A stretch of DNA of 53,921 nt from Candidatus Onthovivens merdipullorum. GTDB lineage: Bacteria; Bacillota_I; Bacilli_A; RFN20; CAG-826. Shown one piece after another: positions 5,427 to 33,263 of the stretch. Location: contig JADIMY010000013.1 of the NCBI GenBank assembly GCA_017694345.1, positions 1 through 53,921 on the forward strand. Direction: 5' to 3'. Made by a program: the position numbers and the translations under genes. The notes beneath the pieces were generated by a model, which was not told the origin of the DNA, ran no database searches, and saw only the letters and a program-made list of their open reading frames with translations. Every line of letters starts with the position of its first letter. Positions within the stretch are counted from its first letter, which is position 1.

Positions 5427-5440
5427 TGTAAGCGCTTACA
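5427..5440 (+). promoter_or_regulatory. Perfect cre / LacI-family operator palindrome TGTAAGCGCTTACA
   Basis: The site matches the cre consensus TGWNANCGNTNWCA at every constrained position. It lies 32 nt upstream of the 5472 ORF and is followed by GCGCGTTTAT. Confidence 0.7.
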
Positions 5441-5854: not shown

Positions 5855-8803
5855 ATGAAAAGAAAAGGTTTACCTGTAGCAATCCTCTGTGGTGGATTAC
5901 TATTCGGATTAGTAAGCGTATCTTTGATGTCTTGTGGTGATGAACAAGTTACTAGATATGCTGTTACATTTAATTATAGTGAAGATTTCACTATTAATGG
6001 GATTAATGAATCTGGGTATGCTGCAAATGAAACAGTATCATTTACTATTACTGTAAACGATAGCACTAAAAAAGTTGGAACTGTTACTAGAGATGGTGAA
6101 ACTTTAACACCTAATGGTACAACTTATTCGTTTGTTATGGGGGAGGCTAATACAAGTATTGTCGTGTCATTAGTACCTAATGTTATCGTTGAAAGTGTAG
6201 AAATTACAGGGAAAAATGGAGCTATTGTTGAGACTGATATTTTTGATAATACACAAATTCAACTTGAAGCAAATGTTGTAACTAATAATGTAATCGAAGG
6301 CGATGATGAAGTTGACTGGAGTTTAAGTGATACAAGCTACGCTAGTATTGAAGATGGTTATTTAATTATCGACAATATGAGAAGTGATGAAGCGAAAGAA
6401 CTCACTGTTACTGCAACTAGTATTTATGATGAAACTAAACATGACAGCATTACCTTTACAGTTAATCACAGTATTATTAATTTAACTACATCTTATGCCA
6501 GATGGAATAAAACTGATGAAGAAGGTGGCGGTGTAGAACAAGATGAACTTGATTTAGTTGACTATAAAACAGACGGTTTAATTATTCAAGATGGGGAAGA
6601 AAATGATTCAGCTTTAATTTTTAATGATATTCATAGTACAAAATTTTATATTGAAACTGAATTTAAAATTACAGGTCTTAGCGCAAATGATAAGTATCCT
6701 AAAATTGGCTTAATGATAGGAACAAACGATAATGGTACATGGAATCAAGCAGGAACAAGACATGGATTTTTCTATTTTGATTCTAACACACAAAATGGCA
6801 ATAAAAATTGGAATACATTTGCTTTTATTGATAGCAATGAAAGTGATGGTTGGAATTGGAATTCTAGTATTGAAAATAGCTCTAGATTCACAGCTGAATC
6901 TGTTACATACAATGAATGGGTCAAAATTGGTCTTATAAGGGATGGAACTGATTATTATTTACTGGCAGGAACTAGTAAAGATAATTATTCAAGCTATGGA
7001 ATTAAGCGAAAAATAAGTTGGAATGGAATTTCTGCTAACACAGAGACATATGCATGGTTTGGAGGTTGGAGAGGCGCTTATGAAGCTAGAAATTTAAAAG
7101 TTCTTTTAGGAACAGAAGTTGAAGAAGAGTTTGGACCTCAATCTTTACAAGTCAAAACAAATAGAACTTTAATTTACAAGGGAAATACTGCGCAAATTTC
7201 AGTTTCCAATAACGATTCATATTTTAATAAAAACTATTTAAAGTATTCATCAAATGATGAAAATATTGCTACTGTTGATGAAAACGGTTTAGTTACTGCT
7301 GCTAGTGATTTAACAGGGACAAAAGAAGTAACTATTAAAGTTACTTACGATAATGGTGTAGAAAATCCATTGACAAGTGAAGTTAATTTAACTATTACAG
7401 ATGATGCTGCAGCAGATATTAGGCTAGATGGATCCTTAGATGACGGGCTACGGAACAGCGTTAATGAACATACATTTAAGTTAAATATTGGTAAAGACAA
7501 TAGTGCTGATGAATATGCGATTTTTTATGGTAAAAAGAATGTAGATGGTCTTTATATTGCTGCCGACTACTATGTTAAAGAATTAAAACATAATAGTAAT
7601 GATTGGTGGCAAAATGATAACTTTGAATGTAGATTTCATAATGAATACGGATCAGAAGGTGGTATAGGTCAGCTTTGGATTAGTACAGCAAATGTAGGCA
7701 GTGCTAATTTTGATGAATTTGCTGTTTCACAACCTGTTTTAAATGAGGAAACAGGATTATATAATATTCATTTTGAAACTGTAACTTATTATAGTAGATT
7801 TGGTATTCAACATGTAACAGAAGATGATTATATTGGATTTAGTGCTGGCATTAATAATACTAAAGGGTGGCATGCTACCTATAACCATGATAATGATACT
7901 TACGGTCATATTCAAAATATGGGTATATATATTACGGAAAATGGTTTAGAAGAAAATATTCCATTTACTTGTAGAGAGCACGAACTTTATTCGATTTACG
8001 ATAAATTACCTACTTGTTTAGAAGCAGGTACCATGCATGAAGAATGTATGCATTGTGACTATTCAGGAGAATCAATAGAGATTCCTGCTAGTGAAGAATA
8101 TCATCAATGGGTAATTACTGAAACCACTACTGAATCAACTTGTTCATCACACGGAACTGGGAGTGCTGAATGTAGTGTTTGTGGTGAGACAACTGCATCA
8201 TTACCTTTAGATCCTAATAAACATACAAAATGGAATGAAGAAGCGGGGATATGTGATGATTGTCATAATTATTATAATGAACCAACTAATTTAGTTGCTG
8301 AAGCATGGACTTTAGGTGGATTTAATAAAAACTTTAATAGTGCTGAGGACTTCAATGTTACGATTAATCTCAACACAAAACTTTCAACTAATTTAGGAGC
8401 GACAATGTATCAAGCTTTTGTTGGAGATATTTGTAGTATTGGATGGGCTAATGGTGGAATCTCTATTAACTCAGGTGCTTCTTCATGGGGGGCTTGGGGT
8501 GATAAAACTGATTATTTAAGAGTTTTAAACAATAAATTTGGAAGTGGTAGTAATAGCGATTTAGTCGAAGCTTATAAAGATGCTGATGTTGAATTAAATG
8601 TTGATCGGAGTACTGAAAGTAATCGTATCACATTAAACGCAATAGTTACATCTAATGTTGAAGGATACGAAGATGGCTTTGCTCAAATTTTATTAATTAG
8701 TGGAAAAACAACCAATAGAAACGGTATCACTGTAACAATAGGTGCTGAAAAAGCAAATGTTACATTTTATAGTGCATATTTAAATGAAGGCAAATTGCTA
8801 TAA
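5855..8803 (+). CDS. Large surface lipoprotein, non-catalytic glycan-binding type (Big_2 + LamG-like + Big_2 + CBM9-like + Cys-rich repeats + C-terminal jelly-roll-like region)
   Basis: RBS AAAGGAGG and lipobox LMSC|G. Big_2 ending TVTATSIYDETKHDSITFTV. LamG-like DKYPKIGLMIGT...IGLIRDGTDYYLLAG. CBM9-like IRLDGSLDDG...GLYIAADYYV...WWQNDNFECRF. No hydrolase motif was recognised. Confidence 0.75.
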   Translation: MKRKGLPVAILCGGLLFGLVSVSLMSCGDEQVTRYAVTFNYSEDFTINGINESGYAANETVSFTITVNDSTKKVGTVTRDGETLTPNGTTYSFVMGEANTSIVVSLVPNVIVESVEITGKNGAIVETDIFDNTQIQLEANVVTNNVIEGDDEVDWSLSDTSYASIEDGYLIIDNMRSDEAKELTVTATSIYDETKHDSITFTVNHSIINLTTSYARWNKTDEEGGGVEQDELDLVDYKTDGLIIQDGEENDSALIFNDIHSTKFYIETEFKITGLSANDKYPKIGLMIGTNDNGTWNQAGTRHGFFYFDSNTQNGNKNWNTFAFIDSNESDGWNWNSSIENSSRFTAESVTYNEWVKIGLIRDGTDYYLLAGTSKDNYSSYGIKRKISWNGISANTETYAWFGGWRGAYEARNLKVLLGTEVEEEFGPQSLQVKTNRTLIYKGNTAQISVSNNDSYFNKNYLKYSSNDENIATVDENGLVTAASDLTGTKEVTIKVTYDNGVENPLTSEVNLTITDDAAADIRLDGSLDDGLRNSVNEHTFKLNIGKDNSADEYAIFYGKKNVDGLYIAADYYVKELKHNSNDWWQNDNFECRFHNEYGSEGGIGQLWISTANVGSANFDEFAVSQPVLNEETGLYNIHFETVTYYSRFGIQHVTEDDYIGFSAGINNTKGWHATYNHDNDTYGHIQNMGIYITENGLEENIPFTCREHELYSIYDKLPTCLEAGTMHEECMHCDYSGESIEIPASEEYHQWVITETTTESTCSSHGTGSAECSVCGETTASLPLDPNKHTKWNEEAGICDDCHNYYNEPTNLVAEAWTLGGFNKNFNSAEDFNVTINLNTKLSTNLGATMYQAFVGDICSIGWANGGISINSGASSWGAWGDKTDYLRVLNNKFGSGSNSDLVEAYKDADVELNVDRSTESNRITLNAIVTSNVEGYEDGFAQILLISGKTTNRNGITVTIGAEKANVTFYSAYLNEGKLL

Positions 8804-8824
8804 TATAAATAAAGACTTAGCAAT

Positions 8825-8852
8825 AAAAATCAGGGAGGAATCCCTGATTTTT
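8825..8852. terminator. Bidirectional intrinsic terminator between convergent genes
   Basis: AAAAATCAGGGA-GGAA-TCCCTGATTTTT: an 8-bp stem flanked by an A-run and a T-run. Confidence 0.75.
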
Positions 8853-8885
8853 AATCTTTTTGAGATAATTTAGGTATTTATTTTA

Positions 8886-9893
8886 TTAAGCAGTCGTCCC
8901 TTCAAAATATTGAACATTTACTTTAATATTTATCATTTTTTTATTTAAATTGCCCTTATTAATTAGATTTATCAATATTTCAAAACTTTTTTGAATAATT
9001 TCATCAGCATTAGGAGCTACACTACTAACCCTAATAGGATAGACATTACTTTCTTGAGTGTTGTCGTAGCCGATAATTTTTATTTTTTTGATTCTTTCTT
9101 CAAAATTTTCGTAAATAATTCGTAAAACTTCATAAGCAAGTAAATCGCTAAAACAAAAAATACCATCAATATTTGGGTTTTTATTTAAAGTTTCAATTAA
9201 TTGTGATGAAGCATTATTTGTTCTTGTTCCAATAATTATGTGATCTTGATCTAGATTATAATTTTTAAGATTTAATTCATCTTTAAATCCTTTTAATCTT
9301 TGCTTATCTATTTCTAATTCATTGTGTTCTGTAAAATATAAAAATTCATGAGAATTTTTATTAATTAATGTTTTAGCAGCGAGTTTGCCGCCTTCATAGT
9401 CATCAGAATATATTGAATTTATGTTAGTAGGTCTTCCATCTCGACCAATTAATAAGAGTGGTAGATTAAAACTGTCGATTAAGTTTTTAGCTTCTAATGT
9501 TGGCTCAATAAAAGTTAAAATAGCAGAAACTTGATAAGATATCGCTTTTTTAGCGATATCTATTGATAGATGTCCAATATGCCAACTATCAGCAAAAATC
9601 ATAGCATCATAATTTTTGCTATATAAGTAATTAGATATTTTTTCTAGCATCATCGAATAGTATGGATTAGTTAAATTATCGTAAACAATTGCGATAACAT
9701 CAAGCTTGCCACTTCGCAAAGTTTTAGCTCTTATATCTGGTATATAGCCAAGTTTATCAGCTATTTTTTTTACTTTATTTTTAGTTTTTTGCGAAATGCT
9801 TTTACTATCTTTCAAAGCTTTAGAAACTGAATTTATAGAAATGCCCGCCTTTTTAGCAATGTCTTTTAAAGTAATCTTCTTTTTAGCTACCAT
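8886..9893 (-). CDS. LacI/PurR-family transcriptional regulator
   Basis: N-terminal HTH ITLKDIAKKAGISINSVSKALKD...KVKKIADKLGYIPD, followed by a periplasmic-binding-protein-like sugar-binding core. It is divergent from the 10100 operon. Confidence 0.9.
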   Translation of the reverse strand: MVAKKKITLKDIAKKAGISINSVSKALKDSKSISQKTKNKVKKIADKLGYIPDIRAKTLRSGKLDVIAIVYDNLTNPYYSMMLEKISNYLYSKNYDAMIFADSWHIGHLSIDIAKKAISYQVSAILTFIEPTLEAKNLIDSFNLPLLLIGRDGRPTNINSIYSDDYEGGKLAAKTLINKNSHEFLYFTEHNELEIDKQRLKGFKDELNLKNYNLDQDHIIIGTRTNNASSQLIETLNKNPNIDGIFCFSDLLAYEVLRIIYENFEERIKKIKIIGYDNTQESNVYPIRVSSVAPNADEIIQKSFEILINLINKGNLNKKMINIKVNVQYFEGTTA

Positions 9894-9986
9894 ATTTTTA
9901 AATTATCATTAATAAAGTTTTAAAGCAACAAAAAAGTAATTTTATTTAATTTTAATAACATTAATTATAATGATATTATAAAATAT

Positions 9987-10001
9987 TACGACTATGTCGT
10001 A
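9987..10001. promoter_or_regulatory. Inverted repeat TACGAC-TAT-GTCGTA in the divergent LacI / operon promoter region (candidate operator)
   Basis: Read directly in the sequence. It is the only GC-containing palindrome in the 9894-10099 intergenic region apart from TTGCTT-A-AAGCAA at 10074-10086, next to the RBS. Confidence 0.35.
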
Positions 10002-10099
10002 TTAATTACATTTTTTAGATTATCGTTAACCTAAAGTATGTAGACAATTGAAAATAAATTTAATATTATAAAATTGCTTAAAGCAAAAGGAGCAATTAT

Positions 10100-12103
10100 A
10101 TGAAAAAATTTTTACTAGCTTTTAGTTTATTAACACTAAGTTCTTTTGGCGTTGTTTCTTGTAAAGATTCAGAAGAAGTGAAAGTATTTGTTGTTACTTT
10201 TGACGTTGATGGTATACAAACAACTGTTAATGTTAATCAAGGTGATTTACTTACTAAACCTGAAGATCCTAAAAAAGACGGATATAATTTTATTGGATGG
10301 TTTACTGACAAGCTTTTAACTGAAGATTCTAAATTCAATTTTGACAATCCTATTAACGAAAATATAACCTTATATGCAGGTTTTGAACCAATTCCGAAAA
10401 CTTATTATACAGTGACTTTTGAACTTAATGGTGGAAGCTTTGTTAATGGTGAAAAAGAAGTGCAAATAGAAGAAGGAATGCTTGTTACTAGACCAAGTGA
10501 TCCTATTAAAGAAGGGTACACCTTTACTAATTGGTATAAAGATAATAATGGTCAAGAACTTTTTGATTTTTTAACTCCAATTAATGAAGATATAACAATC
10601 TATGCAATCTATGAAGAAAATAAAGTTGAAACTAGATATGATGTAGTTGCTTCTAGTTTTAAAGAAGGACATAGAGCAGATTATGCAGTGGACGAGGACA
10701 CCAATTCTTATTGGGAAGCAAACAATAATGAGGAACAAACCTTAACATTTGACTTAGGTGAAGTTAAGTCCGTAAATAAGGTTTCTCAAGAATTCAATGA
10801 TTTATCTACTTGGACATTTACTATAAGTGGATCCATTGATAACCAAAATTATGCAACAGTAATGGAGACTAATAATTCCGTTGGCACAAAATTTGAAAAA
10901 GATATCGAAGGTTATTATCGATATATTAAACTTACGATTGCTCCTGGTGAAAAACTTGCAACTTCTAAAGATTTTATTATTTCTTTTAACGAGTTAAAAG
11001 AAGGTAGCAATTTATCATATGGTATGAAAGGTGTTGCTGATTGCTGGAGTGGTGGATTTGAAAGCGAATTGATGTTTGATGGAGATGAAAATACATATCA
11101 TTGTTGTTCTTCACCACACGAAAATCATTATATGGGTTTTGAAAATGTTGACGGCTTAAATTACTATGTAAAATATATTGAAATAGTTTTTCCGGATGCA
11201 GTAGATCATAAATTTTATTTAGATTATAGAGATGGTCTAACTGGTTCATGGATAACTCCAGAAGGCGGAGATTATACTAATAATATTGAAAATATTAAAA
11301 CAGTTAGAATAGACATAAATAATTATATTAGTGCAGCTTTGCTTCATTATAATTCTAATAGTGCATCAAAATGGCCTGCTATTAGTGAATTTAGAGTAGT
11401 TGGTTTTAAGGAACTTAATAAAGATACAACTCCTAATTTAGTAGATAACAAAAATATTTATGATTTAGGTTCCTTATGCTATATAGATAGAATTAAAGTT
11501 TCCAATATAAGCGAAAATACTAAAGTAGAAATATCAATTGATGGAACGACTTATGAAGAAGTTAATCTAGAAAATACTGAGAACGGCTATATTCTAATAG
11601 ATAAGGAAGCCAGATATTTAAGAGTAAATAGTGATACAACTTTATCAATTTTCGGGACAAAATATGAAAGAAATTTAGCAGTAAATCTTTTACCAATTGC
11701 AACAACTCATTCTAGTGATTCAGGTTTTTGGGAAAACATGATGACAATGAATAAAGATTGTAAAGAAGCTAATACTAGATATTGGTGTACATCAAATTTT
11801 GAAAATACCGATACGATTGAATTAGATTTAAATAATGAGTGTCTTGTTGACAAAATTGTTTATAAGTATCAAGACCCTCTTAGCGAAGGTCAAAATTCAT
11901 ATAAACTAAAGATTGAAGTTAGTAGTGATAAAGAAAATTATGTTACTTTACTTGATACAACAGAAAATGGCGCTTCAGGTCAAGAGTTTATTGCTAATAA
12001 CAATAATAACTTAACTAGGTATATCAAAATAACTACCCAATATGTTGGTGGATGGACAAACTGCAATACTTTAGCAGTTTATGGTTATGGCTCAACTAAA
12101 TAA
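10100..12103 (+). CDS. Lipoprotein with two Listeria-Bacteroides (InlB B-repeat / Flg_new) repeats followed by an array of F5/8 type C (discoidin, CBM32-like) domains
   Basis: Lipobox VVSC|K. Flg_new-like DGYNFIGWFTD...ITLYAGF and EGYTFTNWYKD...ITIYAIY. Discoidin-like A.DEDTNSYWEA...QTLTFDLGEVKSVNKVSQEF is repeated in diverged form. Confidence 0.75.
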   Translation: MKKFLLAFSLLTLSSFGVVSCKDSEEVKVFVVTFDVDGIQTTVNVNQGDLLTKPEDPKKDGYNFIGWFTDKLLTEDSKFNFDNPINENITLYAGFEPIPKTYYTVTFELNGGSFVNGEKEVQIEEGMLVTRPSDPIKEGYTFTNWYKDNNGQELFDFLTPINEDITIYAIYEENKVETRYDVVASSFKEGHRADYAVDEDTNSYWEANNNEEQTLTFDLGEVKSVNKVSQEFNDLSTWTFTISGSIDNQNYATVMETNNSVGTKFEKDIEGYYRYIKLTIAPGEKLATSKDFIISFNELKEGSNLSYGMKGVADCWSGGFESELMFDGDENTYHCCSSPHENHYMGFENVDGLNYYVKYIEIVFPDAVDHKFYLDYRDGLTGSWITPEGGDYTNNIENIKTVRIDINNYISAALLHYNSNSASKWPAISEFRVVGFKELNKDTTPNLVDNKNIYDLGSLCYIDRIKVSNISENTKVEISIDGTTYEEVNLENTENGYILIDKEARYLRVNSDTTLSIFGTKYERNLAVNLLPIATTHSSDSGFWENMMTMNKDCKEANTRYWCTSNFENTDTIELDLNNECLVDKIVYKYQDPLSEGQNSYKLKIEVSSDKENYVTLLDTTENGASGQEFIANNNNNLTRYIKITTQYVGGWTNCNTLAVYGYGSTK

Positions 12104-12110
12104 GTAATTT

Positions 12111-14471
12111 ATGAGATTAAATAGATCTATATTTACTTCTATTTTACTTTTATCAATATACGGACTAAGTTCTTGTAATGATAAAAGTAATAATGAAGAT
12201 TATGAAGTTAAGTTAGAAACTTACGGCGGACAATTATCTAATTTCACAATAACTTTTAAAGAAGGAGAGACTCTTTCTAATTTGCCTATCCCTACTAAAG
12301 AAGGTAATAAATTTATTGGGTGGTATTATGAAGATACATTTGTAACACAAGCTATAGAAGGAGATCCTATTAATAGTGATATAACTTTATATGCAAATTA
12401 TGTTGAAGTTGAATATATAAATTCAATAGATGATTTGAAAAATATAGACCCAAATAAAAACTATGTTTTAAATAATGATTTAGATTTTAATGGTAATGTT
12501 ATTAATCCTATCGGGGATTATAAAACTCCATTTAGTGGATATTTCTTTGGAGAGAATCACAATATTAAAAATTATCAATTACAATATAACAAGTATAATG
12601 GTTTATTTGGTTATGTAACTGGAAAAATTTATGATTTAAGTGTTATAACAGATATTAGTTATGTTGCTGATAATTCAAATTTTGTTGGACTTTTAGCAGG
12701 TTATTTATATAAAGGAGAGGTTTTTAATTCAAGGTGTGAAGGACAAATTATTATTAATTCATCAAGTGAAAATGGTCAAAGTTATATTGGTGGATTAATT
12801 GGCGAAAATGAATCTGGTAATATCAATAGGTGTTATAGTAATGTTTCTATTTCTAACACAAATGATAATAGTAGTTATGTAGGAGGATTAGTTGGATATA
12901 ACGGTGGAGGAAAAGTTTTTGAATCAATTATTAAAAATAGTTATGCTTATAACTCTACAATTAATGTTACTTCAAACAAAGAAACCTCCTCGAGCTATGT
13001 AGGCGGCATTAGTGGATATAACTTTGGAACAATAGAAAAATGTTTTACTTTTGATATGAATTTAATTAGTAAAACAAGCGAATATTATGCTTTTTGTGGC
13101 GGAATATGTGGCGATAATAATGGCGGTCTTATTAAAGATTCATTTAGTAGTTCTAATGTTAAGGTAATTAGTGATAGTGGAACCACTTTTAGAGGTTTGA
13201 TAATGGGTCGAAATTTTGTTTCAACAAAAACACCATTAAGCGGGACATATTCTAATTGTTATGGCTATGAAGGAAGTAAGATAAGCTATAGTTTAAGCAA
13301 TAAAGAATCTTTATTAACAAGCAGGCATTATCAAACAGTTGTACCTTTAGCTAGTTATGAAGAAATAAGTAAAAAAGACTTTTTTATAAATACTTTATCT
13401 TTGAATGAATTTTTAGTTAAGGACGATTATTATCCATCACTAGGTAGTTCATTTTTTAAGATTAAAGATGTTGATGATTTAGGTTTACCTTCTAATCCAA
13501 TTGAAATAAAATCAATTACTGATTTAATGAATATTGATACAAATAAATCATATATATTAAAGAATGATTTAGATTTAAGAGGTAAAGATTTTATTTCAAT
13601 AGGAACTTATGATTTACCTTATTATGGAGTATTTGATGGTAATAACCACACAATTAAATTTGATGTTACTAAAGATAATTCATTAGGATATTCTTCTTTA
13701 TTTGGCTATTTAAATGGAACAATAAAAAATTTAAATACTATCGCAAATATCGATTTAATATCAAATAATAATTTACAGCATTATGCTAGTGGAATGGTTA
13801 GTTATGCTACTAATAGTTACATAAATAATTGTAATAGCGAAGTAAATATAGACATAAGTTCAAATGGAGTTATTGCTAGTGGTATAGTTTCTTATAGTGA
13901 GGATAGTGAAATTTATGGTTGTTCTTCAAGTGGAATTATTAATACAAACTCAACCAATTATTCAAATTATGCTTCAGGAATTGTAGGAATAAATGATGAA
14001 GGGTTGATTAAAGAATGTTTTAGTATCATTGATTTAAGCTTAAAAAGTGAAGAGATTGCTATTAGTGGAGGAGCTGTTGCAAAGAATTTAGGCAAAGTTT
14101 ACGATTCTTATTCGATTAGCAATATTAAAACACTAGGAGCTATAAACGAAACTAATATTGGTGGTTTTGTAGGGTTAAACAAAAATGGTTATATTTATAA
14201 TTCTTATTCGATTAGTAATTTTGAGAAAAATAACGAGGCAAATCATGATTTAATTGGTGGATTTGGTGGAGTTAACATTGATGGCAATGTATCAAATAGT
14301 TATTTTCAAGTAAACGAAGGAATAAAATACAGTTTTGGGAGTAGCGAAATTGATGTAGAAATTACTAAAGTGAATGATGAAGAGCTTAAAACTTTATCAA
14401 CCTTATTAGGTGATAAATTTGTTGATAAAACTGATGGTAGACCACATTTAAAGATTGAGGATAATTTATGA
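12111..14471 (+). CDS. Lipoprotein with one InlB B-repeat and two tandem GLUG-motif beta-helix-like modules
   Basis: Lipobox LSSC|N and GNKFIGWYYED...ITLYANY. Each of the two modules opens with I.SI.DL.NID.NK.Y.L.NDLD...G.F.G..H.I, followed by repeated (I/V)GG(L/I)(I/V)G..N.G segments. Confidence 0.7.
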   Translation: MRLNRSIFTSILLLSIYGLSSCNDKSNNEDYEVKLETYGGQLSNFTITFKEGETLSNLPIPTKEGNKFIGWYYEDTFVTQAIEGDPINSDITLYANYVEVEYINSIDDLKNIDPNKNYVLNNDLDFNGNVINPIGDYKTPFSGYFFGENHNIKNYQLQYNKYNGLFGYVTGKIYDLSVITDISYVADNSNFVGLLAGYLYKGEVFNSRCEGQIIINSSSENGQSYIGGLIGENESGNINRCYSNVSISNTNDNSSYVGGLVGYNGGGKVFESIIKNSYAYNSTINVTSNKETSSSYVGGISGYNFGTIEKCFTFDMNLISKTSEYYAFCGGICGDNNGGLIKDSFSSSNVKVISDSGTTFRGLIMGRNFVSTKTPLSGTYSNCYGYEGSKISYSLSNKESLLTSRHYQTVVPLASYEEISKKDFFINTLSLNEFLVKDDYYPSLGSSFFKIKDVDDLGLPSNPIEIKSITDLMNIDTNKSYILKNDLDLRGKDFISIGTYDLPYYGVFDGNNHTIKFDVTKDNSLGYSSLFGYLNGTIKNLNTIANIDLISNNNLQHYASGMVSYATNSYINNCNSEVNIDISSNGVIASGIVSYSEDSEIYGCSSSGIINTNSTNYSNYASGIVGINDEGLIKECFSIIDLSLKSEEIAISGGAVAKNLGKVYDSYSISNIKTLGAINETNIGGFVGLNKNGYIYNSYSISNFEKNNEANHDLIGGFGGVNIDGNVSNSYFQVNEGIKYSFGSSEIDVEITKVNDEELKTLSTLLGDKFVDKTDGRPHLKIEDNL

Positions 14472-17302: not shown

Positions 17303-17306
17303 TGAT

Positions 17307-18032: not shown

Positions 18033-18095
18033 TACTTAGTTTCAAACATTATTTATAATGTTCGATTAATGTATGTTTAATATTCATAATAATAA

Positions 18096-18109
18096 TGTAA
18101 GCGCTTTCA
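18096..18109 (+). promoter_or_regulatory. cre / LacI-type operator TGTAAGCGCTTTCA
   Basis: The site fits TGWNANCGNTNWCA. It lies 38 nt upstream of the ATG at 18147 and just downstream of a candidate -10 (CATAAT, 18085-18090). GCGCGTTTAT follows it, as at site 5427. Confidence 0.65.
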
Positions 18110-18146
18110 ATTTATTAAGCGCGTTTATTTAGGAGGAAAATTGAAA

Positions 18147-20654
18147 ATGAAAAAAGGCAAGTTTTCATTATACATTCTCTCAGCCACACTTTTAGTGGGA
18201 TTAGGAGGAAGCGTCCTTGTAGGTTGTAATAATAAAGAGGAAGAACAAGCCATTGTAGTTTCTGCAGTTGAAATAACTGATGCAGATGGTTATGAACCTG
18301 ATACAACCGTAATGGATAATAGTGAAATTACTTTAAAAGCAAATGTCACAAGTAATTCTACCGATGCTCAAGCCAGAAGAGTAACTTGGACTTCATCAAA
18401 TAATGATGTTGCTAGTGTCGCTAGTGGTTTGGTGACATTTTATACCGTTACTGAAAATACTGAAGTAACAATTACTGCAACAAGTAGAAGTGATACAACT
18501 AAATCAGACTCAATTACTTTCACAGTAAAACATGGTGTTATAAATACTTATAATTCTCGACCAGTCGGTGGGCTTGATATTACCGATTATGTAACTGATA
18601 ATACAATCTCTCAAGAAGATAATGTCCAAGATACGGCTATGGTTTATAGTGATGTCTATAATAGTGATTTTTATGTTGAAACAGAAATTAGAATTGAAAA
18701 TACTAATGATGAAGATTTATATCCAAAATTTGGTATTATGGTTGGCACTAGTGAATATGGTGCTTGGCAAGATGGCGATAATAAATTTGCAATGTACTAT
18801 GTAGACTTAAATAAAGCAAGTTATGGCAACTGGAATACATTAGCTTTTGTTACCAATAACGAAGCTCTTAATGACTGGTCATGGGGTAGTCAAACAGAAA
18901 ATGCTTCAAGATTCAGTGTCACAACAAGTGTTAAAGAAAAAAGATATTTCAAACTTGGTTTATTAAGAGAAGGTAGTGATTATTACTTATTCTATGGAAC
19001 TAGTGAAGATAATTATGAAAGTTATAGATGCTATAAAAAAGTTACTTGGACTGGTGAAGGTAGCTTGGCCCCAGATGAAGTTTCTTATGCTTGGGTTGGT
19101 GGATTTAAAGCTGGTGTTACTGCAAGAAACTTTAAATCAGTGACAGATCCTGAAGAACTAGAGGCATTATTTGAAGAACCAACATCTCTAACTCTGGAAC
19201 AGACCGGAACACAATTTCTTGAGCAAGGACAATCTATGAAACTTAATGTTAACACTTCACCTATCAATGTTCATAACTTAACATTTACTTCAAGTAATCC
19301 TGAATTATTTAGTGTTACAGAAGATGGAGTCGTTACTTGTAATTCTTCTGAAATAGGTGAAAAAGCTACAATTACTGTTAGTTATGGATCCGGAGAAGAT
19401 GCTTTAAGCGCAAGTGTTCAATTTGCAGTCGAATACGCTGATCCTGTTTTTAAAGCTTCAACTATGAATGGTAATTTTGATAGATCTCACGAAAAAGACG
19501 AAGAAAATCCTTATGTTACAATGTATGACACTAATAATGTTGATCATATTTTACAATTTGCTGGAGAAGGATCAACTAAATGGTTTGCTGAAATGACTAT
19601 AGAACCACAACTCGTGTCAAGCGATGTAGACCCAGATGGGGTTATTAGTGCGTGGCCAAAAATAGGTCTTGCGGCTATGACAAATGGAAGTTCTGATGTT
19701 AGTTCAAGATTAATTTTCTATACTCCTGACGATGGTGAGTTTGGTACTACCCCAACTCAAGCGTTGAGACTTGGAGTGGAAAGAAGTGCCACTGGAGATA
19801 ATTGGAATTTACCAAATCCAGAAGGCTATGAAGACATTGATTATCGTGAACCAAGTGGTGAAATGCATCTAGGATTAGCAAGAGATGGTGCTGATTATTA
19901 TTTCTTCTATAATGATCAATTAATTAGAAAGAGAACATTAACTAGTGCATTTGATGCTTCTACACCAAGTTTACCTGGATTCTTAAGTTGGGGATATTAT
20001 GGTGCTAAGATTAGTAATTATCAATATCTTGAAGGTGATGAAGCTGATAGCGTTTTAAATAATATAAAAGATCGTGAAACTGATTCTTGGAAATTGCAAG
20101 GTCAACAAACATTGACTGATGATAAGAATTTCGTCTTTGGACATTTAGACACTTGTAATAATATTTTAGGTCTTAACAAAATGACTTATAAAAATACAAT
20201 TGATGCAACTAACTTTGATATTTCATTTACAATTTCTAACTATCGTGGTAGTAAAACAGCATGGTATTTTCCAAAATTAGGTGTTGTTTTAACTGGGACT
20301 GCGGATAATGCTCCATACTCTGAAGGAATTTATTTAGCCAGTGACAATGAATATGATAGAATAGAGACTAATATGTATGGAATTTGGGTCAATGGTGCTC
20401 AATTAGGTAGTGAAAATAATAGTTTCGATTACGATGCTTCGTTATATGATGAAACCATTGAACATAATGTGGTGATTTCTGTTAGAGGTGGGCAAGTATC
20501 TGTTACAATTGATGGGGTAGCAATTGCTTTAGAAAATAACGGCGGAACTCCTGTATTGACTAGAGGATTAAAAGGTACTGGTCCTTACACCTTGTCAATT
20601 GAAGGCGAAAAAGCTTCTGCTCAAATTAGTAATTTTACTGTTACAGAACTTTAA
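18147..20654 (+). CDS. Surface lipoprotein, paralog of 5855 and 29173 (Big_2 + LamG-like A + Big_2 + LamG-like B + LamG-like C), non-catalytic
   Basis: Lipobox LVGC|N. KSDSITFTVKHGVIN matches KHDSITFTVNHSIIN in 5855. Other motifs: DLYPKFGIMVGT...LGLLREGSDYYLFYG and WPKIGLAAMT...LGLARDGADYYFFYND. The ORF track starts at TTG 18141, but ATG 18147 has better spacing from AGGAGG (18131-18136). Confidence 0.75.
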   Translation: MKKGKFSLYILSATLLVGLGGSVLVGCNNKEEEQAIVVSAVEITDADGYEPDTTVMDNSEITLKANVTSNSTDAQARRVTWTSSNNDVASVASGLVTFYTVTENTEVTITATSRSDTTKSDSITFTVKHGVINTYNSRPVGGLDITDYVTDNTISQEDNVQDTAMVYSDVYNSDFYVETEIRIENTNDEDLYPKFGIMVGTSEYGAWQDGDNKFAMYYVDLNKASYGNWNTLAFVTNNEALNDWSWGSQTENASRFSVTTSVKEKRYFKLGLLREGSDYYLFYGTSEDNYESYRCYKKVTWTGEGSLAPDEVSYAWVGGFKAGVTARNFKSVTDPEELEALFEEPTSLTLEQTGTQFLEQGQSMKLNVNTSPINVHNLTFTSSNPELFSVTEDGVVTCNSSEIGEKATITVSYGSGEDALSASVQFAVEYADPVFKASTMNGNFDRSHEKDEENPYVTMYDTNNVDHILQFAGEGSTKWFAEMTIEPQLVSSDVDPDGVISAWPKIGLAAMTNGSSDVSSRLIFYTPDDGEFGTTPTQALRLGVERSATGDNWNLPNPEGYEDIDYREPSGEMHLGLARDGADYYFFYNDQLIRKRTLTSAFDASTPSLPGFLSWGYYGAKISNYQYLEGDEADSVLNNIKDRETDSWKLQGQQTLTDDKNFVFGHLDTCNNILGLNKMTYKNTIDATNFDISFTISNYRGSKTAWYFPKLGVVLTGTADNAPYSEGIYLASDNEYDRIETNMYGIWVNGAQLGSENNSFDYDASLYDETIEHNVVISVRGGQVSVTIDGVAIALENNGGTPVLTRGLKGTGPYTLSIEGEKASAQISNFTVTEL

Positions 20655-20690
20655 TAATTTAATAGATTATTAGATACCTTCTTTAAAATG

Positions 20691-20725
20691 AAAACGAGCT
20701 ACGTTAAAAGTAGCTCGTTTTATTA
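20691..20725 (+). terminator. Intrinsic terminator
   Basis: AAAACGAGCTAC-GTTAAAA-GTAGCTCGTTTT followed by ATTAT. Confidence 0.75.
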
Positions 20726-20767
20726 TATTTATTGAAAAATTTAATTTTTTAAATTAATATCATTAAT

Positions 20768-21761
20768 ATGAGTTTATTAAAGCAAGTTGGTTTAAAAGAA
20801 ATAGCTTATGAATTAAAGGTAAGCGTAAATACTGTAAGTAGGGCCTTAAGAGATTGCGATGATATTAGCGAAGAAATGAAAAGGAAAGTTTGTGCTAAAG
20901 CAATTGAAATGGGCTATAGTCCTAATAATGTTGAAGAATACATAAAGAAAGACTTAAAAAGAAATATTGCTTTCTTAGGACCTGATTTTACAAATTCTTA
21001 TTTTATGTTAATGTGTAATGAACTTTATCATTATTTAAATAAAGATAAGTTTAATTTTAATGTAATTATATCTAATAGTAATTTTTTAACACTTAATGAC
21101 TTAAAAAGATGTATCCTTCAAAGAATTGATGGAATCATAACTTTTATTGAACCAAGTGATGAAGCAATAGAGACTGCCAAATTATATAGAATACCAATAG
21201 AAGTAGTTGGTAGAGAGATTAATAATTCTTCGATAGATCAATTATATACCAACGATTTCGTGGGGGGGGGTTTTAGCTGGAGAATACCTGATAAAAACCA
21301 AGTTATGTAAGAAAGTGTGCTTTCTTACATACGAAAATGTCGAATGTTCCTTGCGTCGATTCGAGGGATTCAAGAAAGTTTGTGATGAAAATGGCGTAAA
21401 CGCCGAAACATTTATTGTTAAAGATAAGAAAACACTCGACATTAATTATTTTTTAGAAAATAAGTTTGATGGTATTTTTTGTTTTAATGATGAAATAGCT
21501 TATAACCTTCTTTATAAATTTGATGTAGTCGAAGATACTTATTTAGAAGAACAATTAAAGAATATAAAAATTATTGGATATGATGCATTAGCTCATAGAA
21601 TAAGAGGATTAAAAAGAATTACTAGTATTAACTTTAATTATCACGAAATAGCTAAAAAGGCTATTGAGATAATACAAAGAAGAGTCTTAAATAGTGAAGA
21701 TAATTCTCCTTTTGAAAAGATATGTTTTGATGTCTCTTTATATTTAAAAAAGAAGGATTAG
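20768..21761 (+). pseudogene. LacI-family regulator split by a frameshift inside a G9 homopolymer (ORFs 20768-21310 and 21315-21761)
   Basis: The HTH is LKEIAYELKVSVNTVSRALRD...AIEMGYSPN. ORF1 runs ...YTNDFVGGG and then goes out of frame. The +1 frame reads ..VLAGEYLIKTKLCKKVCFLTYENVECSLRRFEGFKKVCDENG, which aligns with DDYEGGKLAAKTLINKN...RLKGFKDEL of the 8886 paralog. Removing one G restores a single ORF of about 330 aa. Confidence 0.8.
21262..21270 (+). repeat. Poly-G tract (G9) at the frameshift point of the LacI-family gene
   Basis: Sequence tcgtGGGGGGGGGtttt. No comparable G/C homopolymer was noticed elsewhere in the window. Confidence 0.9.
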
Positions 21762-21764
21762 TAA

Positions 21765-22430
21765 TCACTTAATACTAAAAGAATTATCATCTAAAAAACT
21801 AAATATAATTTTGTTATTTTCAATTTTATAATTGAGTTCTGCAGTAAAAACTTGATTTTCAATGACTTTTTGATTATTTTCATATTGATAAAAAGAAGTA
21901 GTTATATCAATTTGAAAATTGTTGTGTTTAAAAGTTTTAATATCAATTGGATAATATACACTTATTCCACTATTAAAAGAAAAGCTACATAAATCAAAAT
22001 CACCTTCTTGATATTTATATTTCTCTAAAGAAAAATCGTCAACACTATAAGTCACATTGTTATCAAGTGGATCATCTTCACAATAAATATCAAGTTTAAT
22101 AGCAAAAGGATTAGTAATTGAATAATCATCTATTAAGTTAGTACTTTCATTTTCAAACTTCGTTGCTATAAATAAAACATCTAAATTGTATTGATTTGGA
22201 TTAATTAAAATATCTTCTTTTTTGATTTTAAAGCCACTTGCAAAATAGTAAAACAAAGTTGGTTCTTCTAATACGCCTTCTTCAATGGGTGGAGTATACA
22301 AAGGCGACCATAAAGGATATAAACGCTGTAAGTATTCCTCACCATCACATAATTTTATTTCTTTTTCTTTACAAGCAGTTAAAGAAGCAATTGAAAGAAG
22401 AAAACTTATTATAACAAAAAAATTTTTCAT
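21765..22430 (-). CDS. Hypothetical lipoprotein (221 aa)
   Basis: Lipobox LTAC|K. Its start overlaps the stop of the upstream HExxH gene (ATGA). No other motif was recognised. Confidence 0.6.
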   Translation of the reverse strand: MKNFFVIISFLLSIASLTACKEKEIKLCDGEEYLQRLYPLWSPLYTPPIEEGVLEEPTLFYYFASGFKIKKEDILINPNQYNLDVLFIATKFENESTNLIDDYSITNPFAIKLDIYCEDDPLDNNVTYSVDDFSLEKYKYQEGDFDLCSFSFNSGISVYYPIDIKTFKHNNFQIDITTSFYQYENNQKVIENQVFTAELNYKIENNKIIFSFLDDNSFSIK

Positions 22431-24322
22431 AATTCAATTTCCTCTATATTACTGTAATAGTATCCAGTTTCATAATAATTGGAATTTTTAAATCTAGCAC
22501 ATAAAAGTATTTTATCGTGATGTAATTTGTAATTTTGAATATCCGCTGATGAGATAGTATATTTTTCTTGAACAATATTAGGATAAACTTTATTAAAAAT
22601 TTTATTTTCTTCATCAGTTAGTATGATAATGTCACAAGAAGTATATGGAAAATGAACACTTCCCGAATAATAATCTAAATTTATTATTATCTCATTATTA
22701 TTTGTGTATTTTGCTGTTATTGGATTAATGAAATCTAATTTATCTAATATTTCATATAAATCAAACTGGTAATCTCTATTGAATTTATAAATTTCGTTTA
22801 ATAAATCAGAAATAGTAAATATACTTTGATTAAAGAAGAGGCTTAAAAAGTCATCTTTATTAATATTTTGTATATCATTTGTAAACAAAAGTTTATATAA
22901 GAGATCTACAATTGCACTCTCATCACCTTCCCCATAAAAATTGTATCCTGCATCGTTAACAAAATCAAAATGTACCCCTAACGACGATGTGTAACATCCA
23001 TCATTTCCAGTATCAAAATTATCAAAAAAATCACTATATGAATTTTGAACTATAAAACTTAAAATTGTTGCAGTTCCTTCAGAATATGCAATTTTTAAGC
23101 CTTTTTCTCTAGATTTATTAATTGCATAGGCATTATTATTGTAATAATAATCTTGCATATTTGTCGAAAATGAATGTGTTCCGCCTGGGTTATCTCCTAA
23201 ATTCATAACTTCTTGTATTAAATGTGCGTATTCATGCAAAATTACATCAACATCCAAATAAGATGGTACTTGTTTATTCTTATGTTCTGCCAAGCGAATT
23301 ATGCCACCGCTATATGATGAATTGTCTTCTGATGAAGGAAAAATTGCTTTTACAAATGATTTTGGAACATTTTTATTAATAAAATACTGTCCACCATAAT
23401 AAAGTATTTGGTTTATAATTAAACTTTTATATTTGTAGCTACTATTATCATTGATATAAAAAGTAGTAGAGTAATTTTTATAAAAATTATTTCCAATATT
23501 TTTATCAACAGTACTATCAAAAACATAGTAATCCCCAGCATCATTAGTTACTCCTGCATAATTTCCACCAGCATAAAATCTTGTATAAACATCATAGCCA
23601 CCACCAAATATGTCTTCTGTAGTTTTTTCAAAATCGTATCTAAAATACCCGTTTTCATCTGTTATGACAGTTGCTATGAGATCGTCATTTAATGCATCGT
23701 CGTCCATTATGTCTACCCTTAATCCGACTAAAGGAAATGATTTATTTTTAAAATTGAATTTAAGGTATCCTTCTACAAATGGTGTTGAACTTATAGTTCT
23801 TGTCGAACTATAGTAATTCTTAACACTGTTTCCAATATTTAATTCGGTTGTATCAGCTAAAATTTGATATGTGCTTTCAGTAATGATATTAAGCATTTTT
23901 AATTTAGAGTAGAGAATATTGTTTGCATCTTCTAAAGAATATTTACTAGTAGCAACATAATTGTTATAAGCAGAAAAATATAAAGTTAAATTTAGCGCTG
24001 GGATAAAAAAATAACTATCTTTGTATATGCAAAAGCTGATTTTTGCAATATTTTGTTCTATTACTTTTACTTCATATTGGCAATCTGCATCGATTGTTAA
24101 AGTCTGAGAATCTTTAAATTTTTTAATAGTAAGAGAGAATTGATTATTCTTATAAAAATTAGAGTAATCTAAAAATTGAAATTTTGTTGCTGGATAGTCT
24201 TGGTTTTCAAATAAATTAGTTTCATTGTAATTTTCTGCATTGTTATCACAAATTTTAATATTACGATTATTAGAAAATAATGCAAGAATAGTTAAAACTG
24301 CTACTATAAAAGTCTGTTTCAT
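22427..24322 (-). CDS. Secreted putative zinc metallopeptidase (HExxH) with a transthyretin-like / carboxypeptidase-regulatory-like domain
   Basis: RBS AGGAGG and an N-terminal signal peptide. PLVGLRVDIMDDD...TDENGYFRYDF looks like a CarbopepD_reg-like segment. HEYAH is encoded at 23222-23236, with a candidate third ligand in AYSEGTA about 38 aa downstream. Confidence 0.55.
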   Translation of the reverse strand: MKQTFIVAVLTILALFSNNRNIKICDNNAENYNETNLFENQDYPATKFQFLDYSNFYKNNQFSLTIKKFKDSQTLTIDADCQYEVKVIEQNIAKISFCIYKDSYFFIPALNLTLYFSAYNNYVATSKYSLEDANNILYSKLKMLNIITESTYQILADTTELNIGNSVKNYYSSTRTISSTPFVEGYLKFNFKNKSFPLVGLRVDIMDDDALNDDLIATVITDENGYFRYDFEKTTEDIFGGGYDVYTRFYAGGNYAGVTNDAGDYYVFDSTVDKNIGNNFYKNYSTTFYINDNSSYKYKSLIINQILYYGGQYFINKNVPKSFVKAIFPSSEDNSSYSGGIIRLAEHKNKQVPSYLDVDVILHEYAHLIQEVMNLGDNPGGTHSFSTNMQDYYYNNNAYAINKSREKGLKIAYSEGTATILSFIVQNSYSDFFDNFDTGNDGCYTSSLGVHFDFVNDAGYNFYGEGDESAIVDLLYKLLFTNDIQNINKDDFLSLFFNQSIFTISDLLNEIYKFNRDYQFDLYEILDKLDFINPITAKYTNNNEIIINLDYYSGSVHFPYTSCDIIILTDEENKIFNKVYPNIVQEKYTISSADIQNYKLHHDKILLCARFKNSNYYETGYYYSNIEEIEL

Positions 24323-24449
24323 TTTTCTCCTCCTAGAAATAATATCAATATAAATAAAATGTAATATATTCTAATTATTTTTAATATTAAAAAAATATCA
24401 ATATTTTATTAACATTAAAATTAAAGTCAAGTCTATTAAAAGAACGTTT

Positions 24450-25880: not shown

Positions 25881-26036
25881 GAACTAACCTCATTTTCTAG
25901 AAAACATTTTAAAACTTTATATTTATTAATCATCTAGATAATAACATTATTAATAAAGTTAAGATTTTAAATTAGAAAGTAGAAGGAAACACTCTTTTTT
26001 GTTAACATTTAATTAAATTTTGGAGGCAGTTTCTCT

Positions 26037-27842: not shown

Positions 27843-27848
27843 TTATTT

Positions 27849-29030: not shown

Positions 29031-29054
29031 GTTCATTATTTTTAAAGTAATCAG

Positions 29055-29084
29055 AAAAGTATCGATTTTATCGATACTTTTATA
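29055..29084 (+). terminator. Intrinsic terminator
   Basis: AAAAGTATCGAT-TTT-ATCGATACTTTT: a perfect 12-bp stem with the T-run inside the descending arm. Confidence 0.7.
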
Positions 29085-29122
29085 ATAGTTATTAGACGAT
29101 ATTTTAAAAGTGATTTGTAAAA

Positions 29123-29136
29123 TGTAAGCGGTTTCA
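29123..29136 (+). promoter_or_regulatory. cre / LacI-type operator TGTAAGCGGTTTCA
   Basis: The site fits TGWNANCGNTNWCA. It lies 37 nt upstream of the ATG at 29173 and abuts a TAAAAT -10-like hexamer. Confidence 0.6.
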
Positions 29137-29172
29137 TTAAGATAGTTTTGTAAATAAAATAGAGGTAATTTT

Positions 29173-30264
29173 ATGAAGAAAAATAAAATATTATTAACAT
29201 CTTTAGCTGCTACCTTCTTAATTTTAGGTGGTAGTTTAGTTAGCTGTGGTGATAACAATAATGGTGGAGAAGTTCCTGGTGGAGGTAATCCGCAAGATCC
29301 TGTTAAAGAAATTACATCTTTAACAATTAGACCAGAATATAAACATGTCGATATGGCGGTCGGCGATTACATTTTTGTTGACCAAGAGCTTTATGAAATT
29401 CTTCCTAGTGGATTACCAGCAAAACAAAGAAGAGTCGAAGTTACTATTCTCGAAGGAGAAGATGTCGTATCTTATGAAGATCAATTGTTAACTGCTATCG
29501 GGGCAGGTGAAGCTACAATTGAAGTTTCTAGTGAAGTTAAACCTGAATTAAAAGATACTTTTACAGTTTCTGCAGTTAACCCTGTATTTGATAGAAATAT
29601 GTCTACAACATCATTCTTTGATATGACATACGAAACAGATCCAGAGAACCCTCGTGTTACAAGTCCTGATGAATCTACTGGTGATTTAATATTTGCAAAT
29701 GTATCTGGTACCAAATGGTATGCTGAAAGTACAATAAAACCTATTAGTGTGGCTTCTACAGAATACTATCCTAAATTTGGTATAACTTCTAATTCATTAG
29801 GAACTGATGCTGACACTGCTAATAGTTCATTCTACTATTTCTTGAACGCTTATATAGGAGAAGGAGACACTCCAAATTACAATTGGACAGATGTTGGTTT
29901 TTGTGAAGTTAGAGGAGCTGAAGGTTGGGCATGGAATCCAGGTATAACTAATGGTGATGCTAGACATAATGATGGCTTTTATCAAAATCCTGAACCTTTA
30001 ACTTTAAATGATTCGTTTAAAATGGGAATGGCTAGAGATGGCATTAGATATTATTTCTGGTTTAATGACACTTATATTGGTTGCTTTGATATTATGCAAG
30101 ATTTAATACCTGCAGATGTTCCAAGTGCTCCAGGTTTATTCGAATTTAATAGTAATGTCGAATTTTCTAAATATAGTGCTACAGCTGATGAAGCAGTTGT
30201 TGATGAAAAAATTGCTAGTATCGGAGAAGATATTAAATTAATCACAACAGTTGCTGATGATTAA
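29173..30264 (+). CDS. Surface lipoprotein, short member of the mosaic family (Big_2 + LamG-like B module)
   Basis: Lipobox LVSC|G. GTKWYAES, YYPKFGITSN, MGMARDGIRYYFWFND and PSAPGL are paralogous to 18147 residues GSTKWFAE...LGLARDGADYYFFYND...PSLPGF. Confidence 0.75.
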   Translation: MKKNKILLTSLAATFLILGGSLVSCGDNNNGGEVPGGGNPQDPVKEITSLTIRPEYKHVDMAVGDYIFVDQELYEILPSGLPAKQRRVEVTILEGEDVVSYEDQLLTAIGAGEATIEVSSEVKPELKDTFTVSAVNPVFDRNMSTTSFFDMTYETDPENPRVTSPDESTGDLIFANVSGTKWYAESTIKPISVASTEYYPKFGITSNSLGTDADTANSSFYYFLNAYIGEGDTPNYNWTDVGFCEVRGAEGWAWNPGITNGDARHNDGFYQNPEPLTLNDSFKMGMARDGIRYYFWFNDTYIGCFDIMQDLIPADVPSAPGLFEFNSNVEFSKYSATADEAVVDEKIASIGEDIKLITTVADD

Positions 30265-31610: not shown

Positions 31611-31636
31611 ATTTTTGGCGCATGGAGGAAAGAAAA

Positions 31637-33226: not shown

Positions 33227-33263
33227 TTTGTAATTTCTAATATAAAAAATAAAAATTTAATTT

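Follow-up and report, generated by a model that had tools for sequence, protein, structure and literature searches.

Three predicted lipoproteins, here called A, B and C, are encoded in a 53,921-nucleotide (nt) stretch of Candidatus Onthovivens merdipullorum DNA (contig JADIMY010000013.1, positions 1 to 53,921; hereafter the window), and in this work we examined their domain composition, their relatives and their gene context. Our analyses indicate that A, B and C are probably lipid-anchored, non-catalytic proteins that bind glycans at the cell surface and belong to a conserved polysaccharide utilisation locus of the Gram-positive type (gpPUL). The domain that they share constitutes a previously unannotated family that has a known fold and occupies a known niche, that of carbohydrate-binding module (CBM)-type domains on surface proteins encoded by polysaccharide utilisation loci (PULs); judged by its context, it may found a new CBM family. 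The analysis directly supports the paralogy, the domain architecture, the modelled fold, the lack of known catalytic signatures, the synteny, the module co-occurrences and the operator statistics, whereas we infer carbohydrate binding, the ligand, surface exposure and the identity of the repressor at the operators described below. An earlier note on this DNA had proposed a glycan-capture or adhesin role for these proteins; the glycan-capture role fits both the PUL context and the co-occurrence of the shared module with GH43, GDSL and CBM9 domains in other proteins.

A gpPUL is defined by the co-localisation of one or more polysaccharide-degrading carbohydrate-active enzymes (CAZymes), a carbohydrate transporter and a transcriptional regulator (Sheridan et al. 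2016, PMC5320581). The window, with a G+C content of 28%, is a locus of this type: it carries LacI regulators, five glycoside hydrolases (GH) of family GH43, GH2, GH36 and GH13 members, a SASA esterase, two further GDSL esterases and an ATP-binding cassette (ABC) importer. A lipobox is present not only in A, B and C but in the majority of extracellular proteins and enzymes encoded at the locus, including the lipoprotein GH43s, one of which resembles endo-arabinanases.

The open reading frames (ORFs) of A (5855-8803, 982 amino acids [aa]), B (18147-20654, 835 aa, starting at an ATG six bases inside a TTG ORF) and C (29173-30264, 363 aa) each begin with a basic, hydrophobic signal peptide and a lipobox cysteine. 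When tested against the pattern [LVI][ASTVI][GAS]C, predicted acylation sites were found in A (VSLMSC27, with an atypical Met at -2), B (VLVGC27), C (SLVSC25) and a fourth protein of the locus, the esterase encoded at 50612 (D; SLVSC22). The earlier note had described A, B and C as three paralogous lipoproteins that combine shared modules differently and had named low-complexity similarity as what would refute this. BLASTP with composition-based statistics bears out the paralogy and speaks against low complexity: A110-514 and B36-428 are 36% identical over 413 aa (E 2.5e-69), B409-615 matches C105-325 (E 4.7e-15) and A244-369 matches C162-295 (E 1.4e-13). All of the motifs by which the paralogy had been recognised are present, namely the end of the Big_2 domain (KHDSITFTVNHSIIN in A, KSDSITFTVKHGVIN in B), the motif of module A (DKYPKIGLMIGT and GLIRDGTDYYL in A; DLYPKFGIMVGT and GLLREGSDYYL in B) and that of module B (GSTKWFAE, LGLARDGADYYFFYND and PSLPGF in B; GTKWYAE, MGMARDGIRYYFWFND and PSAPGL in C). 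The separation of modules A and B into distinct modules did not hold, however. Since module A of protein A (251-423) matches module B of protein B (466-634) at E 3.5e-5, the two are subgroups of one domain family, as phmmer and the module alignment (A1) also show.

This family has so far escaped annotation. The only Pfam matches in the four proteins were Big_2 (PF02368) in A (430-501, 25.7 bits against a threshold of 22.8) and B (347-422, 39.9 bits) and the GDSL esterase domain in D; C had none, and no catalytic domain was found by Pfam in A, B or C. Sixteen module sequences matched no relevant Pfam family, LamG included, even at E ≤ 10, NCBIfam returned nothing for C, and neither the module profile nor searches with the whole of A and the whole of B found a useful sequence relative in the PDB. 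Named members of the family in public databases are labelled "hypothetical protein". A hidden Markov model (HMM) search of 1.84 billion representative proteins recovered 320 clusters at E ≤ 1e-3 (204 at E ≤ 1e-10), of three kinds: A-like architectures about 900 aa in length, C-like architectures about 370 aa in length, and large proteins with many copies of the module that reach 4,795 aa. Up to 11 stretches per protein were matched in this deep search, and nine at most in a local rescan. Elsewhere the module is fused to GH43, to GDSL esterases and to CBM9_1, and such tandem copies and fusions are typical behaviour for a CBM.

Across 256 copies the family is recognisable by the motifs TKWYxE, YPK(F/I)G, FYYxD, WxW and (L/M)GxxRDGxxYY. 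Nine positions (in C numbering E185, P200, K201, G203, D225, W252, W254, R288 and G290) are conserved in 70-98% of copies, and the charged and aromatic set among the conserved residues in 70-92%; position 225 is Asp in 79% of copies and Asn in C itself. The largest relatives, P0022 (3679 aa), P0023 (4795 aa), P0046 (3296 aa), P0032 and P0029, contain many ConA-like (concanavalin-A-like) modules in which the main type alternates with a 'type-2' subtype, the one also present in D, and some of these giants carry embedded GDSL esterase or GH43 domains together with an N-terminal Flg_new_2 domain.

The fold of the module was predicted from C. An AlphaFold2 model built with a 40-sequence alignment of C-type proteins (mean predicted local distance difference test score [pLDDT] 90.3, predicted template modelling score [pTM] 0.81) shows an immunoglobulin (Ig)-like domain (49-135) that leads into a beta-sandwich (about 161-337). 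A Foldseek search of the PDB with this model returned 165 structures at E ≤ 1e-3; among the 50 best, almost every one was ConA-like, which identifies the modelled module as a jelly roll of the concanavalin-A-like lectin/glucanase superfold. The matches included the C-terminal lectin-like domains of thrombospondin and COMP (E 2.7e-7) and CBM66 of B. subtilis, the best compact match (E 1.3e-6, target-normalised template modelling [TM] score 0.66, 12% identity). Also matched were PL36, PL7 and PL18 alginate lyases, a GH16 carrageenase and a xyloglucan hydrolase (E 1e-5 to 1e-6), for which TM scores of 0.31-0.47 lie below that of CBM66. Further matches were to galectins, a Big_2-CBM56 tandem, the GH43 arabinanase AbnA, a surface glycan-binding protein of a levan utilisome, the A domain of S. 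epidermidis Aap and the cell-surface protein YwfG; identity was at most 14% in every case. The modules had been called LamG-like, which is correct for the fold predicted by the model and incorrect as a family label, given that no LamG-type Pfam model matched. When A, B, C and D were scanned with regular expressions, neither the GH16 motif ExDxxE nor the PL7 motifs RxExR, QIH and YFKAG turned up, and so, for A, B and C, the earlier view that they lack a hydrolase motif stands on both Pfam and motif evidence.

Within the three proteins the module is embedded in distinct domain arrangements (Table 1). A full alignment of 31 A-type proteins gives a conserved order of lipobox, Big_2, module, Big_2, CBM9-like domain, Cys/His-rich region and C-terminal beta-sandwich; residues 29-110 of A are an insertion in this alignment (A3) and are missing from most A-type orthologues. 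That residues 517-700 of A are CBM9-like, as had been suggested before, is supported by hhalign of the corresponding alignment (A4) with the CBM9_1-matched region of protein P0089 (95% probability, E 3.5e-8, 166 columns), although A and 22 such segments had no direct Pfam match at E ≤ 1 and no PDB sequence match. In a second model, covering A 697-982 (pLDDT 85.6), residues 706-806, which have no Pfam match, form hairpins of short strands with a pLDDT of about 75-95, and these hairpins lead into a beta-sandwich for which Foldseek found just weak legume-lectin matches (TM 0.2-0.3) and hhalign no significant relation to the other modules. The Cys/His-rich region recurs in the A-type homologues P0011-P0015 and P0028-P0066 and, lying in an extracellular lipoprotein of an anaerobe, may be either a zinc-ribbon-like element or a disulfide-stabilised linker. 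In B, residues 62-128 give a weak Pfam aBig_2 match (17.8 bits, below the cut-off of 27). Residues 641-835 of B group with the C-terminal parts of P0025, P0026, P0027, P0089 and P0144 in a small family, and hhalign relates this third module to the 256 A1-type copies (93.8%, E 1.8e-7). The Ig-like domain of C has no Pfam match, and the model is its sole support. The third module of B and the InlB-like, Cys-rich and beta-sandwich parts of A, together with a fourth operator at 31597, go beyond what the earlier note had described.

Table 1. Features of proteins A, B, C and D and of the neighbouring DNA, in window coordinates
Feature	Position	Strand	Basis or remark
A, signal peptide and lipobox (SLMSC, Cys27)	5855..5935	+	read from sequence
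A aa 29-110, InlB B-repeat-like (Flg_new_2-like)	5939..6184	+	jackhmmer to Flg_new_2 regions of P0035/P0029/P0104
A aa 111-209, first Big_2-type Ig-like domain	6185..6481	+	aligns with B 36-130
A aa 216-425, ConA-like module (module A)	6500..7129	+	HMM A1, E 1.2e-70; fold from C model
A aa 430-515, second Big_2	7142..7399	+	Pfam Big_2
A aa 517-700, CBM9-like (WWQNDNFE motif)	7403..7954	+	hhalign
A aa 706-806, Cys/His-rich beta-hairpins, two C...CxxC...H units	7970..8272	+	conserved C/H columns in alignments A3 and A6
A aa 811-978, C-terminal beta-sandwich, unassigned affinity	8285..8788	+	second model
B, signal peptide and lipobox (LVGC, Cys27)	18147..18227	+	sequence
B aa 36-130, Big_2-type Ig-like domain	18252..18536	+	homologous to A 111-209
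B aa 131-340, ConA-like module copy 1 (A-type subgroup)	18537..19166	+	HMM A1, E 1.2e-71
B aa 347-428, Big_2	19185..19430	+	Pfam Big_2, E 4.1e-10
B aa 434-636, ConA-like module copy 2 (module B)	19446..20054	+	HMM A1, E 1.2e-45
B aa 641-835, third, divergent module, same superfamily	20067..20651	+	hhalign
C, signal peptide and lipobox (LVSC, Cys25)	29173..29247	+	sequence
C aa 49-135, Ig-like beta domain	29317..29577	+	AlphaFold strands, pLDDT above 90; Foldseek to Big_2-CBM56 tandems
C aa 138-345, ConA-like module	29584..30207	+	HMM A1; AlphaFold model; Foldseek
D aa 386-570, 'type-2' module, remote family relative	51767..52321	+	phmmer, hhalign
D aa 571-778, second C-terminal module, possible relative of the third of B	52322..52945	+	hhalign
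RDD-family membrane protein, usual downstream neighbour of C-type genes	30329..31516	+	Pfam RDD; synteny in L001, L004-L009, L010-L012
ABC sugar importer (lipoprotein solute-binding protein, two permeases), GH2, long MalK-like ATPase	31622..39137	+	syntenic with C-type and RDD genes
cre-like operator, perfect palindrome TGTAAGCGCTTACA	5427..5440	+	31 nt upstream of small ORF 5472, then gene A
cre-like operator, 1 mismatch	18096..18109	+	38 nt upstream of gene B
cre-like operator, 2 mismatches	29123..29136	+	37 nt upstream of gene C
cre-like operator (fourth), perfect	31597..31610	+	just upstream of the start of the importer solute-binding protein gene

Gene order ties these proteins to sugar import. 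We compared 12 related loci, nine located through C-type proteins (L001 and L004-L011) and three through B- and A-type proteins (L012-L014). The order C-type gene, RDD-type gene, solute-binding protein (SBP) gene and two permease genes is kept in 11 of the 12, down to 31% identity, and is usually followed by GH2 and ATPase genes, whereas the GH43, SASA, GDSL and GH36 neighbours differ from locus to locus. L013 has its C-type-sized ORF on the opposite strand. In several of the related loci the upstream neighbourhood of LacI and/or MatE genes also contains an A- or B-type gene; the slot held by A-type proteins in relatives is filled by B in the window, where gene A is an extra paralogue adjoining a second LacI gene (8886-9893).

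Regulatory sites provide a further connection. The earlier note had placed cre-like operators in front of the three genes, with that of A upstream of the intervening ORF at 5472, and this is confirmed: allowing up to two mismatches, TGTAAGCGCTTACA occurs at four sites against 0.11 expected, and none of 100 shuffled sequences reached four. The box is also conserved in relatives, where it precedes A-type genes in L001, L004 and L005 and SBP genes in L001, L004, L005, L006 and L009. The Firmicute cre consensus is WTGNAANCGNWNNCW, which all four sites fit. A promoter scan returned sites no more frequently than expected by chance.

From these observations we propose the following model. Each protein would be held at the membrane by its N-terminal acylated Cys, with Ig-like (Big_2-type) domains serving as spacers that display one to three ConA-like modules, to which A would add its CBM9-like domain, Cys-rich region and further beta-sandwich. 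The modules would bind a plant glycan rich in arabinose and galactose, and the bound polymer would thereby be kept beside the lipoprotein GH43s, the esterases and the lipoprotein SBP of the importer. Of the three, the C-type protein would have the tightest coupling to the importer, given that its gene stands directly before the RDD and transporter genes in nearly every case. The cre-like, LacI/CcpA-type operator that A, B, C and the importer share would coordinate their expression.

The constancy of the C-type, RDD, SBP and permease run, set against its shifting neighbours, also lends itself to another explanation, in which the C-type protein is a dedicated transporter subunit that, together with the RDD protein, forms a receptor or gate passing oligosaccharide to the SBP and permease, or else acts as a sensor, and is not a polymer-capture protein that stands by itself. 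We regard this as unlikely. The reversed orientation of the C-type-sized ORF in L013 speaks against it; moreover, the idea overlaps with glycan binding by surface lipoproteins, since binding would still be the proposed activity.

Alternatively, A, B and C could be adhesins or surface-coat proteins directed at host mucus, other cells or plant particles and not specific to the glycan of the locus. Architectures that join Ig-like and lectin-like domains are common in adhesins, and in keeping with this the three proteins have such a layout, Foldseek relates the module to the A domain of Aap and to YwfG, and the giant multi-copy relatives (3,000-4,800 aa) look adhesin-like. An adhesin would not be expected, though, to have its gene directly before the importer operon in 11 of 12 related loci (C-type) or upstream near LacI and/or MatE in several (A- or B-type), nor to have an operator in common with the importer, nor to be built from a module that co-occurs with GH43, GDSL and CBM9, and for these reasons we hold an adhesin role to be quite improbable.

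A more direct challenge is that the ConA-like module is itself catalytic, a new GH or polysaccharide lyase (PL) family on a GH16/PL7/PL36 scaffold, which would make A, B and C surface endo-enzymes. Several points weigh against our interpretation of these proteins as binding proteins and of their regulation and substrate. The ConA-like fold assigned by the model also houses the catalytic families GH16, PL7, PL18 and PL36, with Foldseek E-values comparable to that of CBM66; the conserved E185, K201, D225, W252, W254 and R288 might serve binding, catalysis or the structural core; the hints of an arabinose/galactose-type substrate are NCBIfam matches below cut-off; the operators could be bound by CcpA or by the local LacI regulators (8886 and 20768); and the wall-less state of the lineage is an inference from relatives only. 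We nevertheless favour binding over catalysis because the module occurs in tandem (up to at least nine copies) and fused to GH43 and GDSL enzymes as binding modules typically are, because CBM66 fits better than the catalytic families at uniformly low identity, because GH16 and PL7 motifs are absent, and because candidates for an endo-acting GH43 are already present at the locus as lipoproteins. Catalysis by the module therefore seems to us very unlikely. That the paralogy itself reflects low complexity or chance is refuted by E-values of 1e-13 to 1e-69, by motifs conserved across 256 copies and by a well-folded model, and is almost certainly wrong.

The earlier note had also pictured an expanding, recombining family, and this part was not sustained. 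The A-type, B-type and C-type architectures each have orthologues of the same architecture in other genomes, and the only DNA shared among A, B and C consists of patches of 32-80 nt with 71-81% identity; the domain shuffling behind the architectures is therefore ancient, and nothing points to continuing recombination or recent expansion. Recent recombination or gene conversion among the three genes was considered and rejected on account of the shortness of these patches and the fact that the nearest relatives of individual modules lie in other genomes: the first module of B is 52% identical to that of P0011, an A-type protein of another genome, and 40% identical to that of A, and the second has its closest relatives in the second modules of P0025 and P0026, both B-type proteins, with C-type modules next.

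Esterase D had been said to carry LamG-like modules of the same type at its C-terminus. With moderate confidence, its modules can be called remote relatives of the family, a more distant relationship than that statement implied, as neither BLAST nor single-sequence profiles gave a signal between them and the family. With the small A1 profile, hhalign was likewise negative for the single sequences B 641-835, D 387-778 and A 516-982 and for the type-2 profile. From these negatives we initially concluded that D was unrelated, a conclusion overturned by the 256-copy alignment, to which the D type-2 profile is linked by hhalign at 87.9% (E 3.2e-6); in addition, D 386-570 matches P0046 by phmmer (independent E-value 1e-5 in a set of 198 sequences). 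The link between D 571-778 and the alignment of the third module of B is weaker (hhalign 63%, E 7e-5), with BLAST giving E 0.21 for B738-833 and D695-775. Since these links, and that of the third module of B to the family, are invisible with small profiles, we consider them remote and of moderate confidence. Merging of families in the third round of jackhmmer was not trusted by itself, because tandem repeats can cause profile drift.

Several other features of the window deserve mention. The RDD protein of the window (30329-31516) and those of L001 (12948-14183), L004 (8651-9844), L007 (8879-10111) and L009 (945-2207) are 395-441 aa long and share a layout in which a single N-terminal transmembrane helix and further helices at the C-terminus flank an extracytoplasmic loop; this loop measures about 200 aa and abounds in Asn, Tyr and Glu. 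The gene stands between the C-type gene and the ABC importer in every locus with a same-strand C-type gene, and its synteny could offer a functional lead for the RDD protein. The MalK-like ABC ATPase (36999-39137) is unusually long at 712 aa, and gene calls in L001-L003 give relatives of up to 895 aa; the additional sequence separates the nucleotide-binding domain from the OB/TOBE regulatory domains. Downstream of B, a LacI-family regulator is broken into a DNA-binding, N-terminal part (20768-21310) and a sugar-binding, C-terminal part (21315-21761) in different frames. As its orthologues in L001, L004-L006, L011 and L013 are intact (326-328 aa), the break is a frameshift, reflecting either a pseudogene or a sequencing error. 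Beyond it, on the reverse strand, two ORFs without a Pfam match (21765-24322; a 221-aa putative lipoprotein and a 631-aa protein) separate the LacI and MatE genes; they may be an insertion, since LacI and MatE genes adjoin in L001 and L006.

The region around gene A has features of its own. A cluster at 10100-17302 encodes proteins that combine Listeria-Bacteroides repeats (Flg_new), F5/8 type C (discoidin) domains, a GLUG motif and a GH13 alpha-amylase domain; its first two proteins have lipoboxes and the GH13 protein has none, and the cluster is probably a glycan-utilisation unit of its own, controlled by the LacI regulator at 8886-9893. A tRNA-Thr gene (GGT; 4881-4954, reverse strand) lies about 470 bp upstream of the gene A operator within an AT-rich non-coding stretch (~4400-5470). 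The small ORF between the cre-like box and gene A (5472-5804, 110 aa) is hydrophobic at both ends and weakly matches the start of Glyco_hydro_3_C (E 0.0019, below cut-off; motif LEGTVLLKNDYNVLPLK), so that by sequence it may be the remnant of a GH3 gene.

Comparison with known systems helps to place these proteins. CBM66, the levan-binding domain of B. subtilis SacC (PDB 4AZZ/4B1M), resembles the module in being a non-catalytic appendage with a ConA-like jelly roll of about 160-200 residues. By sequence the module nevertheless falls outside CBM66: there is no HMM link, identity is 12%, and Pfam models of the 3keto-disac_hyd/DUF1080 type miss the 16 members at E ≤ 10. Its ligand also probably differs, arabinan, arabinogalactan or xylan being more likely by context than levan. 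In the same way, laminin-G/LamG_3 shares the ConA-like superfold without a LamG-type Pfam model matching the module, and the CBM9 family, represented by CBM9-2 of Thermotoga maritima Xyn10A (CBM9_1, PF06452), is matched by profile to A 517-700 and its orthologues, whereas direct Pfam matches in 22 members and a PDB sequence match are lacking.

At the level of whole proteins, there is a parallel with the SusE/SusF-type surface glycan-binding proteins (SGBPs) of Bacteroidota, such as that of the levan utilisome (PDB 8A9Y chain E; Foldseek E 4e-5), which are likewise non-catalytic, co-regulated lipoproteins with Ig-like spacers and beta-sandwich binding domains, encoded in a PUL beside the transporter. 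They have no sequence homology with A, B and C, and they work at an outer membrane with a SusC/D TonB-dependent transporter, whereas here a Firmicute combines an ABC importer, a lipoprotein SBP and an RDD protein. The gpPULs of Roseburia and Eubacterium rectale (PMC5320581) share with the present locus the co-localisation of CAZymes, an ABC transporter and a LacI-type regulator; they differ in that here most extracellular components carry lipoboxes and not cell-wall anchors, and in that dedicated, putatively CBM-only lipoproteins made from the unannotated module are added.

Gut and rumen metagenomes commonly contain Anaeroplasmataceae-like Bacilli, whose biochemistry is almost unstudied. A literature search combining Anaeroplasma or Anaeroplasmataceae with lipoprotein, GH or GH43 returned nothing relevant. 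The locus described here shows a possible layout for fibre degradation in such bacteria, in which lipid anchors hold most of the extracellular components, enzymes as well as binding proteins. The shared module, with a confident model, fusions to enzymes and no coverage in Pfam, NCBIfam or the PDB, is a concrete candidate for a CBM family, and with the family defined, CAZymes and PULs could be better annotated in these genomes. The C-type lipoprotein-RDD-ABC run, for its part, provides a first functional lead for an RDD-family protein. More speculatively, the module may found a new CBM family that is largely confined to understudied, probably wall-less Bacilli of the gut and rumen, with the C-type protein and the RDD protein forming an obligate, unrecognised glycan-receptor component of the ABC importer. 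We put this forward as a tentative idea with somewhat long odds; if it is true, the C-type and RDD proteins would play in a Firmicute the part that the SusD/E/F layer of surface glycan-binding proteins plays in Bacteroidota.

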